DNA of 64,000 nt. It comes from Escherichia phage JES2013. Position numbers and translations under genes: made by a program. Each line of letters begins with the position of its first letter. Positions within the stretch are counted from its first letter, which is position 1. Positions 1 to 41,860 of the stretch are shown here, in pieces. Location: the sequence record KC690136; one strand, given 5' to 3'. Below the pieces are notes generated by a model that was not told the origin of the DNA, made no database searches, and saw only the letters and a list, made by a program, of their open reading frames with translations.

Positions 1-247
1 CCCACACATGTTAACAGACCTGCATGTATGCACTTCTGTTATTGTGTGCACTATGGAGGCCCGGCATCTCGCCCCTCGTAGGCGAGTGCCAATGAAGGGC
101 CGACACTACCCATAGTAAGTAATAAATTTAAAACATGGTACTTAGGATCTAATATATTCTACATAAGTTAAGTATATGTACTTTAGTACCATAAGTACTA
201 GATCTTTTATTTTTTATTATTCAGTTATTTTAGTTATATTCTTTATG

Positions 248-5261: not shown

Positions 5262-6544
5262 TGCATCAAATCAAAACAACACTGTACGCACTGAACAAAG
5301 ATGGCAGCTACCAACAGTGGAAAGTATTCACGGATGGTGATAAGGTTATCGTAGAGTTTGGCAAGCTTGATGGTAAACTGCAATACAAAGAGACGATCTG
5401 CACACCTAAGAACGTAGGTCGTGCCAACGAGACTACAGCTGAGCAACAGGCCGAGCTTGAGGCTATCAGTAAGTGGGAAAAACAAGTCCGTCTGGGGTAT
5501 GTTGAAAACATGGAAGATTGCGAGCAGGGTGTTGACCTTTTACCCATGCTGGTGCATGACTATCTGAAGCGTGGCAAGGCACTTAAATTACCTTGCTGGA
5601 TCTTGCGTAAGTTAGATGGCCTTCGTCTGCTTGTTGTTTTCCAAAATGGTGAGCCTAAATTTATTTCCCGTGGTAATAAGTCCTACCCTATTCAAGGAAA
5701 GCTTTTAGAGCAACTTCGTTCTTTCCATTCTACCACTGGGATTAAACAACTTGATGGGGAACTATACATTCATGGTCTTCCTTTGCAGAAAATAGTGTCT
5801 CTTGCTAAACGGTGGCGCACACAGGAAGAGATTCAGGCCGAGATCGATAAAGACTATGAGGCAGATAAAAAACGCCGTCATGCCGCAATTAAGGCAGGCT
5901 TATCAACATACAAAAACTTCAACAAGGTAGATATTCCTGTCGATGTTGATCCTGTTCGTGATGATTTGCGTTACGGTGGGTACTGTAGCTACGATCTGGA
6001 GTATCACATTTTTGATATTCCTAGCGACAAGGTGTGGTGGGATCCAGAAACAGAGTCTGGACGCTGCAAGGATCTTATGGATGCAGAGGATACCGTTACC
6101 ACTCTGATGCTTGACCATATCAAGGTTGTTGACGCAGAGCTTGCGTACACAGTTGATCATTGCGAAGAATCTGTTGGTATATTCATGTCCGAAGGATATG
6201 AAGGTACCATTATGCGTAACTTCTGTGGTAAATATGAGTACGGTCAGCGAACATCTGAAGCATTGAAATGGAAAAAGTTCAACGACGCAGAGGTGAAAGT
6301 TATTGACGTTGAGAAAGATAAGAATGATGAAGGTGTTCTTATCTGTGTTGACAAGGAAGGTATTGTTGTTAAAATGAAGATGAAAGGTACGCACGAGGAG
6401 CGTAGCTATGACAGAATGCAGGAAATGATCGGCAAGTTTGTCACCTTCAAATATCAAGCAAGGACAGAAGACAACAACTACCAATTCCCTGTCGGTATCT
6501 GCGTCCGAAATGTTAACCCAGACACTTGGGAGGTGCTGGAATAA
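5261..6544 (+). CDS. ATP-dependent DNA ligase
   Basis: Motif I KLDGLR (KxDG), EGTIMR (motif IV-like), WKKF (motif V-like). Confidence 0.8.
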   Translation: MHQIKTTLYALNKDGSYQQWKVFTDGDKVIVEFGKLDGKLQYKETICTPKNVGRANETTAEQQAELEAISKWEKQVRLGYVENMEDCEQGVDLLPMLVHDYLKRGKALKLPCWILRKLDGLRLLVVFQNGEPKFISRGNKSYPIQGKLLEQLRSFHSTTGIKQLDGELYIHGLPLQKIVSLAKRWRTQEEIQAEIDKDYEADKKRRHAAIKAGLSTYKNFNKVDIPVDVDPVRDDLRYGGYCSYDLEYHIFDIPSDKVWWDPETESGRCKDLMDAEDTVTTLMLDHIKVVDAELAYTVDHCEESVGIFMSEGYEGTIMRNFCGKYEYGQRTSEALKWKKFNDAEVKVIDVEKDKNDEGVLICVDKEGIVVKMKMKGTHEERSYDRMQEMIGKFVTFKYQARTEDNNYQFPVGICVRNVNPDTWEVLE

Positions 6545-38486: not shown

Positions 38487-38702
38487 ATGAAGATAGAAAT
38501 ATTTGGTGGAGCTGACAACACTCGTGGCCTGATTTACCTTGAATTCGATGAATCATACCTACCAGAGGTGTTAAATATAGACTCTGTTGCGGAGGCTTTG
38601 GGAGTAAACCCTAAAGAACTCCACTCTTGTGCTGAGATCGATGGTTGGGAAGAGACCATGAACATTGATTTCAGTGAAGTAGAGGATGAACCGCTGGACT
38701 GA
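38487..38702 (+). CDS. Small acidic protein
   Basis: MKIEIFGGADNTRGLIYLEFDE...; last gene of rightward block. Confidence 0.5.
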   Translation: MKIEIFGGADNTRGLIYLEFDESYLPEVLNIDSVAEALGVNPKELHSCAEIDGWEETMNIDFSEVEDEPLD

Positions 38703-39541
38703 CACACAATTAGCTGCCCGGCTAAAGTGCTGGAAGCACCTATAACACATCTTTCAACTAAATTTCCCACCACAACAATCACTTACCTCCCATACATGAC
38801 TGTTTGCTTGTTTAGTGAGCAGTCATGCCTTGACATTCTTGCCTATCCTGATAAAATTAAGTTCTTCTCTTTTCTTTTACCGAGTAATTCGGGTTTTCTG
38901 TTCTCTTCGGTTTGAAGGGGTATGGAGATACACCTGAGTGAACAGGGTGAACAACCGAACATTTGGCTATGGCATTAGCATGGCGAAGCGGACGGGTGAC
39001 GAAAGAGGGGCCGGAGGACACCAGTCACTGCCATATGGTATATGGGTGATAACCTGAAGAGTCTGAATAAGTGTTTAAGTACCAGTCAGAGGAAAAGGTG
39101 AATGGTAGCCGAAGGGGGAGGGGGGTTTCTTGTATCTTTAATTTGTATATTATGTATACACTTGTAAACCAATCTCATTTGAATTTGTTTACCACACAAA
39201 GTGGATAGAGACAAATATTACCTATTAAACTTGAATTATTTATAGAAAATACCACAACACTACTTAAGTCTTTGATTTTACACACAAATCCTGCAGATAT
39301 TCACCCTCCATATTTAACATACTTGTAACATATTCCATACTCTACCTGCCCGATCAATTCACCCAACTACATCCCCATATTTTCCCTGTCTGTACTACCC
39401 CTGCCCCGCCGGGAGTCCCGTCATATCTGGCTTTCCAGCAAATATCACACCCACAAATATCATTGCCTGAAGAGGGTTTCGTCCCATAATACATGCCTTA
39501 CCTGAAGAGCGCTTCATATACCCCGTAAATTTTTTAATTGA

Positions 39542-39574
39542 CCCCCTCCCCGCCGCCGGAGGGGTCGGCTTTTC
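39542..39574 (+). terminator. Terminator-like hairpin CCCCTCC-ccgccgcc-GGAGGGG + TCGGCTTTT
   Basis: GC-rich stem followed by T tract in gene-free region. Confidence 0.5.
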
Positions 39575-40120
39575 CCACACAGACCTGAAGAGTCAGCCAG
39601 AAATATCTGAATGGACCCAATTCTGCCCTGTTATGAGCCGTAGCGACTGGAGTGCTGCCAGGCGGACGAAATGGGAATACTTCTCATTCTTATAACAATT
39701 CTCAAATATCGAGGCAGTGAGGCAAATTAATAGGTAAGGCCGTTCACATAGTGGCACAACATTTGCAGTCTATCTGATGTGGTTGAATGAGAATACCTAT
39801 CATTGTGAGAATAGTTATCATTACGGGCAATTTAACATAATACCCATTATGCGCACCACTGGCGATACATACAGGGATTGATAACATGAGTTACTGTTTA
39901 CGCATATAACAATTATATTTCTTATCATTTGTGTGGGATATAGTTAGCAGCCGATAGATTAGATATTGACCTGCGGACTTCTGACCGTCTAGACGTCTAA
40001 ACGCCCACACAACAAGGCTTATACATACATCGCTGAATGTAAACATGGCCGCAAAAATGCTACCATACAAGATTGTAAATTTTTCATGCAGCACTTGACA
40101 AAGAGGAGAAAAACTTGTCT

Positions 40121-40162
40121 GACACTTTAGACATACTGGTGACACAATATGACACTTTAGAC
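40121..40162. repeat. Direct repeat GACACTTTAGAC (two copies, 30 bp apart), followed by iterated TGTTTAC/TGTTCAC motifs to about 40360
   Basis: Exact 12-mers at 40121 and 40151; at least eight (A)CTGTTTAC-like motifs in the next 200 bp. Confidence 0.55.
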
Positions 40163-40449
40163 TTAATTGACATGCCTGACTGTTTACGCTGTCACTATTC
40201 GCGCTATTACTATTCACTCCCTTTACTGTTCACGCTCTTACTGTTTACATGCTTAATGGTTTACATGCTTAATAGACTGCATGTCTAATAGTTTACATAG
40301 CTAACTGTTCACATACTTATCATTTACATGATTGACTGTTTACACAGAGATGATAAGCCATGACATTCGTTTGCATGACAATAATTAACAAGATAACAAT
40401 TGACAAGCTAACAGCCAACAAGCTGACAATTAACTTGTTTACAATAGAT

Positions 40450-40615
40450 GACATAATATAAAAGCAGGGCAACTATTAGAAGATCTATAGTTGCCTTGCT
40501 TGTTATGTCATGATTAACTAAATACAAGGCAACTATGATCTGATTAATAGTTTGCAAACAAACTATCACGGGGGTGATGGTTACTGCTTTTATATTATGT
40601 CGCGACTCCGTCGCG
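40450..40615. repeat. Nested inverted repeats: 18-bp arms GACATAATATAAAAGCAG / CTGCTTTTATATTATGTC around palindrome GGCAACTAT-N10-ATAGTTGCC, plus CGCGAC-tcc-GTCGCG
   Basis: Arms at 40450-40467 and 40584-40601 are exact reverse complements; inner palindrome 40468-40495; GGCAACTAT also recurs at about 40517 and 40634. Confidence 0.6.
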
Positions 40616-41295
40616 CCATGCCATTCGTTTGCATAGTTGCCTTATTGTTACAGATAAAATAATTGTATTGTTAATTATTTCTTATCTTTCTATTAGTCAT
40701 CTAATGATTCCAGTCAATATAGTAATGTACAGTAAACATTAGACGACTAAAGATTTATCTGCTTATAATAACTTACCGTGACAATTTCGGACTGTTTACG
40801 AAAAATGTTGGCACCTAAGCTGATTTATGTTATGCAGTTTACACGAATAATTATTTTATGCAGGTATTGACTATTCCATTATTCTATGGTTGGAATAAAT
40901 ACTTAGCAGACTATAGAATGGTGAGCGTACGTAAATTCTGAGATCTGGCGGCTATAGTTATACTCGATTTTTCACGTAGAGCACGCTTTTGTGGTTATGT
41001 AAGTGTATGACTTATAAAGATTTTTAGTTGTTGACAAGACACTGAAGATATGCATCAGGTTAAATTTTGTGCAATAGCTGCATTACGTGCAATTTTGGAA
41101 GGAAAAACGGGTAAAAATAGCCCTGCTACCACACAATGAAAAGTTATGCAATAGTTATTTTACATGTATATTTGTACAGTGTGTGGGGTTGATGGCTCGT
41201 CAATTATTCCACTTGCCAGGTAGGGCCGTTTATGGTAGGGGGAAGATCAGACAAAAAGAAAGGGGCCTAAGCCCCTTGATAATTCAGTTAAAAAA

Positions 41296-41715
41296 TTATA
41301 ATGATTCGTATATTTCAAAAATCCGATTTGCCAGGTCGTTACGGTACCGGAATTTTTCATCACGTTTGATCATAAGATCTTTATAGCCGTACTCTTTAAG
41401 CACTTCATTAACTTTATGGCGGCACACCTTCATATTATCCTGAGCGTCACCAATAAACCTGTTGCTATGGTGCATGGCTTTAATTTCTTCTTCCAGGACC
41501 AGGGCAACTATGCGGACCGGATCAAGCTGATAGGCGGTAACATCAATGCGGCATTGTAAACGGCTTTTTACGTCTGCCACCGGATATACTGCAACCTCTT
41601 CCCCGTCAACATTGACAATAATTAGTTTACCATCGATTTCGAATCCTTTCGCCGCCGGACCGTGACAAAAAGCGTTATCAAAGCTATATGCCGGATTATT
41701 AGATTTAATGTTCAT
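41296..41715 (-). CDS. Hypothetical protein
   Basis: 139-aa ORF; last gene of leftward block. Confidence 0.5.
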   Translation of the reverse strand: MNIKSNNPAYSFDNAFCHGPAAKGFEIDGKLIIVNVDGEEVAVYPVADVKSRLQCRIDVTAYQLDPVRIVALVLEEEIKAMHHSNRFIGDAQDNMKVCRHKVNEVLKEYGYKDLMIKRDEKFRYRNDLANRIFEIYESL

Positions 41716-41860
41716 GGTGTTTTTACCTCTTAGTTAATTTTCTTACAACTTCCCTTTAAAAAAGAATATAGCAAAACTGCCGATCCTTGTCAATAAGGAT
41801 AGCATAATTTTTATGTGATCAAGGGGCTTTATTGCCCCCCTGACCATGTAACTTGTTGTA

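Follow-up and report, generated by a model that had tools for sequence, protein, structure and literature searches.

A conserved Y-shaped element, most likely a structured RNA, in the non-coding region of rV5-like phages

The rV5-like phages carry a long stretch without genes, drawn in the rV5 paper as a grey box labelled "non-coding" (PMC3606486), and the question it raises is what the striking set of inverted repeats inside it is for. We have analysed the repeats in a window of 64,000 nucleotides from Escherichia phage JES2013 (KC690136). The sequence of the window matches that of E. coli O157 typing phage 4 (KP869102), an rV5-like myovirus of the genus Vequintavirus, at 100% identity. The stretch without long ORFs is ~2.1 kb in length, has 33-36% G+C against ~43% elsewhere, and lies between rightward genes that end near 38.7 kb and leftward genes that start at 41296. 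There is a GC-skew switch within it. According to the rV5 authors the skew changes at the point where the direction of transcription also reverses; they saw no terminators in the stretch and were unable to assign an origin (PMC3606486). An earlier note on this DNA had proposed that the repeats are nested and could form a cruciform, of a kind typical of origins or protein-binding centres.

The repeats themselves are as described. GACATAATATAAAAGCAG (40450-40467) and CTGCTTTTATATTATGTC (40584-40601) are exact reverse complements of 18 bp, and on recounting they are 116 nt apart where the note gave about 115. The palindrome GGCAACTAT-N10-ATAGTTGCC is present between them at 40468-40495, as is a second copy of GGCAACTAT (40528-40536) with a degenerate partner, ATAGTTTGC, at ~40547-40555, and the sequence CGCGAC-tcc-GTCGCG follows at 40601-40615, base 40601 being common to it and the right 18-bp arm. 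An additional copy of ATAGTTGCC at 40633-40641 could pair with 40526-37. For spacers of up to 300 the 18-bp arms are the longest perfect inverted repeat in the window, and those ranked second to fourth by length, of 12 nt each, are all within 250 bp of them. The longest inverted repeat in 60 Markov-simulated windows had a mean length of 12.1 and a maximum of at most 15, and the analytic expectation for one of at least 18 bp is 4e-4 per window. GGCAACTAT occurs 5 times against 0.5 expected, a ten-fold excess, with 4 of the 5 inside 40468-40641; the 18-bp arm sequence has no further copy in the window. Secondary-structure prediction, which the note had put forward as a check, gives a very stable DNA fold for a stretch of 186 nt (folding-energy z of -10.3), with corresponding values of -10.6 for RNA of the + strand and -8.6 for RNA of the - strand.

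In the predicted fold the repeats are helices of one Y-shaped three-way junction of ~165 nt, extending from about 40450 to 40615 on the + strand (Table 1). The two 18-bp arms form the closing helix, P1. The palindromes that had been taken for separate symmetric sites become two halves of a single long arm, P2, in which GGCAACTAT (40468-76) pairs with ATAGTTTGC (~40547-55) and ATAGTTGCCTTG (40487-98) with CAAGGCAACTAT (40525-36), leaving a variable apex at 40499-40524. A second hairpin, P3, completes the junction and a small GC-rich hairpin, P4, stands just outside it.

Table 1. The element and its surroundings, in window coordinates; helices P1 to P4 are as predicted by folding
Feature	Position	Strand	Evidence or remark
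Putative counterpart of the Gotham 459-bp direct terminal repeat (genome ends)	39661..40119		homology
Tandem short-repeat arrays: TGACAC units, then GTTTACA/GTTCACA heptamers every 15-16 bp	40120..40356	+	conservation 0.47-0.71
Left copy of 20-bp direct repeat GCCATGACATTCGTTTGCAT bracketing the element	40357..40376	+	
Hypervariable spacer with five copies of AACAAGCTnACA in this phage; relatives have it replaced or deleted	40377..40447	+	conservation 0.32
P1 closing helix, 5' strand (left 18-bp arm)	40450..40467	+	100% identical in 16/16 aligned element-bearing relatives
P2 long hairpin arm	40469..40555	+	MFE and centroid folds
P3 9-bp hairpin with GGGG loop, AACTATCAC-GGGG-GTGATGGTT	40561..40582	+	one U.G pair on the + strand
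P1 closing helix, 3' strand (right 18-bp arm)	40584..40601	+	inverted-repeat scan, fold
P4 small GC hairpin CGCGAC-tcc-GTCGCG, just 3' of the closing helix	40601..40615	+	fold
Right copy of 20-bp direct repeat, then third ATAGTTGCC (40633-41); invariant block ends	40615..40655	+	
Conserved ORF-free DNA between element and operon terminator	40656..41259		87-97% column identity
Intrinsic terminator of the leftward operon, 660 bp before the element	41260..41277	-	terminator scan, strong
Conserved neighbour gene, rV5 ORF164 homologue, 139 aa	41296..41715	-	syntenic anchor

The element is highly conserved among close relatives, a point on which the note had let its claim stand or fall. Of 118 related phage records 116 have the 165-bp core, 106 of them at 95% identity or more and ten with a 33-bp insertion. 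When 16 relatives are aligned both arms are invariant and the block 40448-40655 almost so, with conservation at 1.0 across 40600-40649, and the ~70 bp directly to the left of the block have been replaced repeatedly. The element is in fact the conservation maximum of the whole non-coding region (0.975-1.0 per 50 bp over the best-conserved 200 bp), and the minimum (0.32-0.55) adjoins it. The few substitutions within the element in Vequintavirus are at positions predicted to be unpaired or that are wobble-compatible, and the latter are compatible on the + strand only (A-U to G.U, G-C to G.U and U.G to C-G). Insertions are confined to the tip of P2, where 33 nt in rV5, C9 and phita32 lengthen the arm and leave the remaining fold intact. 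In naswa a T>C change at 40496 perfects the local palindrome, to 15/15, and breaks a long-range pair.

Direct repeats of 20 bp, GCCATGmCATTCGTTTGCAT, bracket the element without abutting its arms. The record of FV3 (NC_019517) lacks exactly 40377-40634 of the window, and the ends of the gap are these repeats, so that the gap may be either a genuine recombinational deletion or a loss of the long hairpin in cloning or assembly. If the FV3 sequence is genuine then the element is dispensable, which would be at odds with the transposon result given below.

For more distant relatives we used the neighbour gene as an anchor, chosen as unbiased. Its protein is 86-92% identical across Vequintavirus, the IMG/VR lineage L004, Septuagintavirus and Phapecoctavirus, and in all four lineages there is a perfect inverted repeat 580-710 bp beyond its stop codon. 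The arm of 18 bp with a spacer of 116 in Vequintavirus (GACATAATATAAAAGCAG) corresponds to one of 17 bp with a spacer of 82 in L004 (GACATAATAACGCTGAG), 16 bp with a spacer of 71-73 in Septuagintavirus (GACACTATAAAACGAG) and 15 bp with a spacer of 97-98 in Phapecoctavirus (GCTAATAATAAGCCA). The phi92-like and Klebsiella phages have the arm variants GCTAATAATAACGCA, TGCTAATAATACCGCA and TGCTAATAATAACACA, each perfectly complementary to its own partner. Every lineage's copy is predicted to fold as a Y-shaped three-way junction with the parts in identical order, namely closing helix, long arm with a variable tip, second hairpin, and small GC hairpin just outside. The GGGG(G) run of the second hairpin adjoins the right arm in all four, and the counterpart of P4 in the phAPEC8/phi92 group has 3 compensatory pairs and the UCCG loop in common. 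What is not shared is the nesting: the palindromes are specific to Vequintavirus, the long arm of L004 is a plain hairpin, and GGCAACTAT is not present in L004, Septuagintavirus or the phAPEC8 group, where the fold is retained. L004 also has a bracketing repeat equivalent to the 20-bp repeat.

A covariance model built from phAPEC8/phi92-type copies only has a single match in the window, at 40449-40628 on the + strand (27.7 bits, E~1e-4), and it also matches the L004 element in the corresponding orientation, and we thus treat these versions as one family. The model did not detect the Septuagintavirus copies, which we include provisionally by synteny, their perfect 16-bp repeat and the common 3' motif GGTCGCGCCA. 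A metagenome scan by way of the neighbour protein gave one close relative and nothing else, nearly all matches in a scan of IMG/VR with the 15-nt phAPEC8 arm were chance single copies, and a scan for the flank pattern gave close relatives only. The one match to the invariant 20-mer in a scan of bacterial genomes is at chance level and is not recognised by the covariance model.

The sister group also supplies the statistics of covariation, which is minimal within Vequintavirus because the element is almost invariant there. We used 8 and then 11 alignable copies of phAPEC8, phi92 and Klebsiella type, with 72-100% identity. The RNAalifold consensus has 57 pairs in six helices, and 15 of the pairs have changed on both sides. 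A standard pair is formed in 98.5% of cells for the set of 8 and 97.9% for the set of 11, whereas in a control with the partners slid by 1-3 columns only 24-51% and 25-52% are paired. There are 35 and 45 cells with compensatory changes, and covariation scores of 0.276 and 0.259 against shuffled means of 0.114 and 0.107 respectively; in both sets none of 500 shuffles reached the observed percentage paired, number of compensatory pairs or cells, or covariation score. The wobble cells are as informative: in the 8-copy set there are 42 G.T and 0 A.C, and three G.U pairs are invariant in all aligned sequences. As all of the wobbles are G.U on one strand, with no A.C, selection to fold acts on that strand only, and the one-sided wobble pairing also makes the + strand fold better than its complement, by 3-18 kcal/mol in every lineage. 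Compensatory changes well beyond the controls and strand-specific G.U pairs are both what one looks for in a structured RNA.

The pattern in the alignments thus indicates that selection acts on a folded single strand, and not on a symmetric duplex site or cruciform. A cruciform, or a palindrome that binds a dimer, would constrain both strands equally or conserve the half-site sequence, and what we see is pairing kept while the sequence changes. The cruciform of the earlier note is therefore improbable, although its view of the locus as a functional centre stands: the element is such a centre and not a chance symmetry, being the conservation peak of an ORF-free region of ~2 kb in which, in a relative, no transposon insertions were recovered. 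The note's proposal of terminase or replication proteins as those to examine is also in keeping with the putative genome end nearby. The comparisons speak against the specific reading as a duplex cruciform or symmetric protein-binding palindromes, and an origin is still one candidate function.

P1 differs from the other helices in having Watson-Crick pairs only, in every lineage. This is also compatible with two identical inverted duplex sites or with a process at the DNA level.

The location of the element relative to the genome ends has a bearing on its function. The original rV5 paper assumed circular permutation (PMC3606486), and headful packaging was inferred for a relative in one recent paper. 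In Gotham, a Vequintavirus, packaging is reported to start at a fixed point and the virion DNA to be 137,025 bp long with a direct terminal repeat of 459 bp at each end (Dias et al. 2020, PMC7471380), and the record of this phage has identical repeat_regions annotated at 1-459 and 136567-137025. Gotham 1-459 aligns to 39661-40119 of the window with 92% identity, conservation falls at both boundaries of that segment, and the first base of the EdH4 and YN3 records is exactly 39661. Several independent GenBank records of relatives start a few hundred bp to the left of the element. By homology the element should then be ~330 bp in from the left end of the virion DNA; given the assumption made for rV5 and the headful inference for a relative, it is on homology with Gotham that this distance rests. 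Genome records of the phAPEC8 type have their first base ~525 bp from the element, and terminal repeats have been reported for Schickermooser (328 bp, PMC6563267) and BME3 (342 bp, PMC12210895), which together put it in the same genome-end neighbourhood. The space from the terminal repeat to the element is occupied by the short tandem arrays, which differ in copy number among relatives. Terminators equivalent to that of the leftward operon are also present in L029, L024 and L004.

Several other features of the region were looked at. Searches of Pfam and PHROGs assigned no function to the neighbour gene, and a scan of the window for tRNA and tmRNA genes gave none. Fur-box-like motifs in the terminal repeat are no more frequent than the background for the window, and a purine-rich segment at 38862-39150, downstream of a strong promoter, has no significant fold.

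Our preferred reading is that the element works as a folded single strand in the + orientation, and on balance we think that it is a rightward-transcribed RNA. Invariant G.U pairs, G.U intermediates and helix tips of variable length are the usual signature of structured RNAs in dsDNA genomes, and these features incline us, with a little over even confidence, to RNA as the nature of the folded strand. It would be transcribed away from the terminal repeat. Scans for sigma-70 promoters and for terminators in four lineages gave no site at a conserved position relative to the element, and the DNA upstream of it is hypervariable within Vequintavirus and unrelated between the subgroups. As there is no promoter or terminator around it that is conserved across lineages, the RNA may be excised from a longer transcript or stabilised within one, and the long perfect P1 stacked on P3 would be a plausible substrate for an RNase III-type enzyme; we put processing forward tentatively. 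We searched the literature for an origin, ncRNA, transcriptome or inverted repeat in these phages and found no transcriptome and no description of the element. Rfam 15 cmscan of both strands of 38500-41800 at E<=1 gave no match to any family, Phage_pRNA, 6S and Y RNA/YrlA included, the sole hit being mir-4 with 21.9 bits against a gathering score of 70 (E=0.66), which is noise. The element is most likely a new family of phage structured non-coding element, and most likely an RNA.

Each arm has a -10-like hexamer (TGaCATAAT, TATAAA, AATAAT), and we considered the arms as inward-facing promoters. This was set aside because a start inside an arm would leave the perfectly conserved P1 helix unexplained.

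As to what such an RNA might do, the element adjoins the terminal repeat and has an AT-rich stretch immediately to its right, and for this reason we favour a role linked to the genome end among the possible functions, while holding it to be doubtful as yet. The RNA could serve in initiation or priming of replication at the adjacent AT-rich DNA, or in concatemer processing or packaging. A more specific proposal, that it directly handles the genome end in these terminase-type myoviruses, as a packaging or concatemer cofactor analogous to the pRNA of phi29 or as a replication primer, is speculative and we regard it as improbable.

There are four other explanations to be weighed against a structured RNA. 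The one that survives best, which we consider unlikely but worth keeping in mind, is a single-stranded DNA signal, in which the + strand would fold when transiently unwound, for example as lagging-strand template of rightward forks from the terminus, and the hairpin cluster would be a priming or helicase-loading site or some other origin-linked signal. The same covariation and strand bias fit this too, and strand bias alone cannot separate RNA from single-stranded DNA, since G.T is the least bad of the DNA mismatches. The very stable DNA fold, the Watson-Crick pairing of P1 throughout, and the origin-like setting with its low G+C, iteron-like arrays alongside and GC-skew switch all suit it, and it would account for the absence of a conserved promoter or terminator. 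However, long-invariant G.T pairs and G.U intermediates are typical of RNA and unusual in DNA hairpins, and with a primase-helicase of its own (PMC3606486) the phage has no obvious need of a priming signal of the host type. DnaA boxes were considered as support for an origin and rejected: L004 has three perfect boxes, and none is conserved in the other lineages.

A site in duplex DNA, whether a cruciform or a set of symmetric binding sites made of the GGCAACTAT half-sites and the outer arms, for small terminase, an initiator or the like, is the nearest to what the earlier note had in mind, and we now think it improbable. GGCAACTAT is clustered as well as enriched, the outer arms are perfect and free of wobbles in all lineages, closeness to the terminal repeat and the insertion-free region would suit a packaging site, and the naswa substitution improves the local palindrome at the expense of the long-range pair. 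Yet relatives keep the pairing and not the sequence, GGCAACTAT being missing in three of the lineage groups and the half-site sequences not being conserved between lineages. The excess of G.T over A.C also means that there is no selection for the complementary strand to fold, a cruciform would not readily be extruded from arms 71-117 bp apart, and there is no other copy of the arm sequence in the window. Only the fully Watson-Crick outer helix P1 has the properties that a cruciform or symmetric duplex site should have.

We give very little credence to a pair of back-to-back intrinsic terminators, in which a hairpin on either strand would have one of the arms as its T-rich tail (CTGCTTTTATATTATGTC) and the pair would insulate the terminus from converging transcription. 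A scan does flag the hairpin at 40561-82 with its T-tract on the + strand, and the record of Murica has a - strand terminator annotated over the GGCAACTAT palindrome. However the + strand candidate is found in this phage only, scans of L004, Septuagintavirus and the phAPEC8 group gave no matching terminators, the equivalent tails in other lineages (CTCAGCGTTATTATGTC, TGGCTTATTATTAGC) are not U-rich, and the leftward operon already has its strong terminator 660 bp away. The supposed tails change together, as the strands of a single helix do, and P4 and P2 would be left unexplained.

A selfish or neutral palindrome without function, be it a MITE-like insertion or a self-perpetuating quasi-palindrome, is hardly credible, for although there are perfect terminal inverted repeats around a short interior and FV3 lacks the element, it has a single copy in the window with no flanking target duplication and so none of the dispersed copies of a MITE, it is at the same syntenic position in two subfamilies with vertically diverged sequence, its interior has compensatory substitutions, and it is the most conserved segment of the region.

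Returning to the structured RNA that we favour, the closest analogue in topology and location is the pRNA of phi29 (RF00044). This is an RNA of ~120-174 nt encoded near the left genome end, with a three-way junction closed by a 5'/3' helix and an extra 3' hairpin domain, and its sequence diverges among relatives with the fold retained. The Y fold, 18-bp closing helix and probable position ~330 bp inside the genome end of our element are similar. However pRNA is to our knowledge known only in phi29-like podoviruses, which have protein-primed DNA and no small terminase, whereas the phages discussed here use terminase and direct terminal repeats; the Rfam scan gave no match to pRNA, and by eye we saw no complementary pair of loops for ring formation. 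The likeness is thus best taken as a topological resemblance and not as membership.

Three groups of DNA elements also resemble parts of the region. T7 and T3 reportedly have a short direct terminal repeat flanked by short-repeat arrays, and an inverted repeat near the junction is said to be implicated in end formation; for T7 a hairpin intermediate has been reported in processing of the concatemer junction. The region described here has a similar layout, with arrays next to a short terminal repeat and an inverted repeat close to the junction. In T7, however, the element acts at the level of DNA, as an intermediate for which no covariation is reported, and here we have a strand-specific three-way junction that is conserved across subfamilies and is 200-330 bp from the repeat boundary. 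The injection-stop region of T5 is also long, ORF-free, rich in repeats and palindromes, tied to the terminal repeat and conserved in relatives. It differs in being ~8% of the genome in from the end, with the pre-early genes before it, and in its connection with injection in two steps, whereas in our case there are no genes between the end and the element. Iteron origins such as those of lambda, P1 and P4 share the AT-rich, ORF-free setting with tandem 15-16-bp repeats beside inverted repeats, but here even close relatives differ freely in the copy number and sequence of the arrays, which are the least conserved part of the region, there is no adjacent initiator gene, and the part that is conserved is a folded single strand and not the repeats.

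For the DNA reading the analogue is the single-strand initiation signals, of the G4 type, the M13/f1 complementary-strand origin and the plasmid sso, which are hairpin clusters of ~100-150 nt that function on one strand. They are found in ssDNA phages and plasmids, where host primase or RNA polymerase recognises them; this phage has its own primase-helicase, and no similarity of sequence is to be expected.

Few coliphages are isolated more often, or used more in therapy, than the rV5-like, phAPEC8-like and phi92-like phages, and what the region contains is of some practical interest. The box labelled non-coding, unexplained since 2013, now has an anatomy of terminal repeat, variable arrays, folded element and conserved spacer, and the element is its one piece with clear evidence of selection for a single-stranded fold. 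In a saturated Himar1 library of the Vequintavirus Bas54 there were no insertions in a ~2-kb intergenic region between oppositely transcribed genes, and the authors read this as an important functional locus (bioRxiv 10.1101/2025.11.20.689424). The insertion gap spans the whole 2 kb, that is terminal repeat, arrays and element together. With our analysis, what had been an important locus only vaguely defined becomes a specific target of ~165 nt, with named helices and a definite strand. If the element does give an RNA that acts at the genome end, loss of that RNA would explain why transposon insertions in the 2-kb region are not tolerated, and an RNA that acts in replication or packaging would add a new class to the RNA cofactors of phages. 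We suggest that in phage-engineering designs the element is best avoided, and that the genome records of these phages should be re-opened at the true ends.

The records of the relatives EdH4, YN3 and Gotham all begin exactly at the counterpart of window position 39661, the first base of the segment corresponding to the annotated repeat of Gotham. KP869102, rV5 and many other relatives were deposited with an arbitrary permutation, and rV5 was first reported as circularly permuted (PMC3606486). Close to the left boundary of the repeat there is a copy of TTCTCAAATATC that the window has in common with L004, a relative from IMG/VR with its own version of the Y-shaped element.

Features around the terminal repeat and the element (window positions)
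Feature	Position	Remarks
CCTGAAGAG	14690, 15558, 22191, 38405, 39053, 39466, 39501, 39584	+ strand
Near-consensus sigma-70 promoter (TTGACA-16-TAAAAT with TG), then about 300 nt of purine-rich ORF-free DNA	38830-39150	
Counterpart of Gotham 459-bp direct terminal repeat	39661-40119	
TTCTCAAATATC	39699	
Tandem GAGAATAnnTATCAT motif	39789-39825	inside terminal repeat; "repeat_region" in phage naswa annotation
Tandem short repeats, two families	40120-40447	in order, TGACAC units, GTTTACA/GTTCACA heptamers, AACAAGCTnACA x5
20-bp direct repeats GCCATGmCATTCGTTTGCAT	40357-40376 and 40615-40634	enclose variable spacer and element
ORF-free DNA, about 600 bp	40656-41259	right of element; 87-97% conserved among relatives
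Inverted repeat, 82%	40693-40714 / 40729-40750	within the ORF-free DNA
139-aa neighbouring protein	41296-41715	- strand

The short-repeat arrays left of the element, in which the heptamers have a period of 15-16 bp, differ among close relatives in copy number and even in sequence, and this stretch of lowest conservation in the region directly adjoins the DNA of highest conservation. The 20-bp direct repeats have a comparable pair in L004, where GCGCCATGTTATCGTTGCAT encloses the element. FV3 (at about 1226-1245 of that genome) has one hybrid copy and lacks the intervening 258 bp. Repeats are also found around the element in the sister group: phi92-like phages L140, L141 and L143 have 2-4 tandem TATGAAATGATTAC units downstream of it, the number varying by genome, and in the phAPEC8 group the motif TGCTAAT(G/A)AT is repeated around it.

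To the right, the 139-aa protein has 86-92% identity across two phage subfamilies, far above expectation for phages at such a distance, and its gene may move with the terminal region as a single module. The protein has no match in Pfam and belongs to PHROG 12277, which names no function.

With regard to other motifs, all 8 copies of CCTGAAGAG in the window are on the + strand and none on the - strand, with about 0.24 expected per strand, and half of them are in the ORF-free DNA bordering the terminal repeat on its left. This sequence is a possible regulatory motif specific to the phage. The purine-rich stretch that follows the sigma-70 promoter keeps patches in the distant relative L004, and its predicted folding is not significant (z -1.1). 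For the tandem GAGAATAnnTATCAT motif the likeness to a Fur box is at background level in the window (13-14 of 19 positions), and there is a match of 16-17 of 19 in the phAPEC8-type contig L006 (reverse strand, about 2771). L004 has three perfect DnaA-box consensus 9-mers (TTATCCACA) within 45 bp (about 5845-5890), some 600 bp from its element, and none of the three is present in the other lineages compared.

We also observed that 18 "Campylobacter phage" records (MG0656xx, UNVERIFIED) are near-identical in this region to genomes of E. coli phages from Vequintavirus or Phapecoctavirus. Their host labels are probably wrong.
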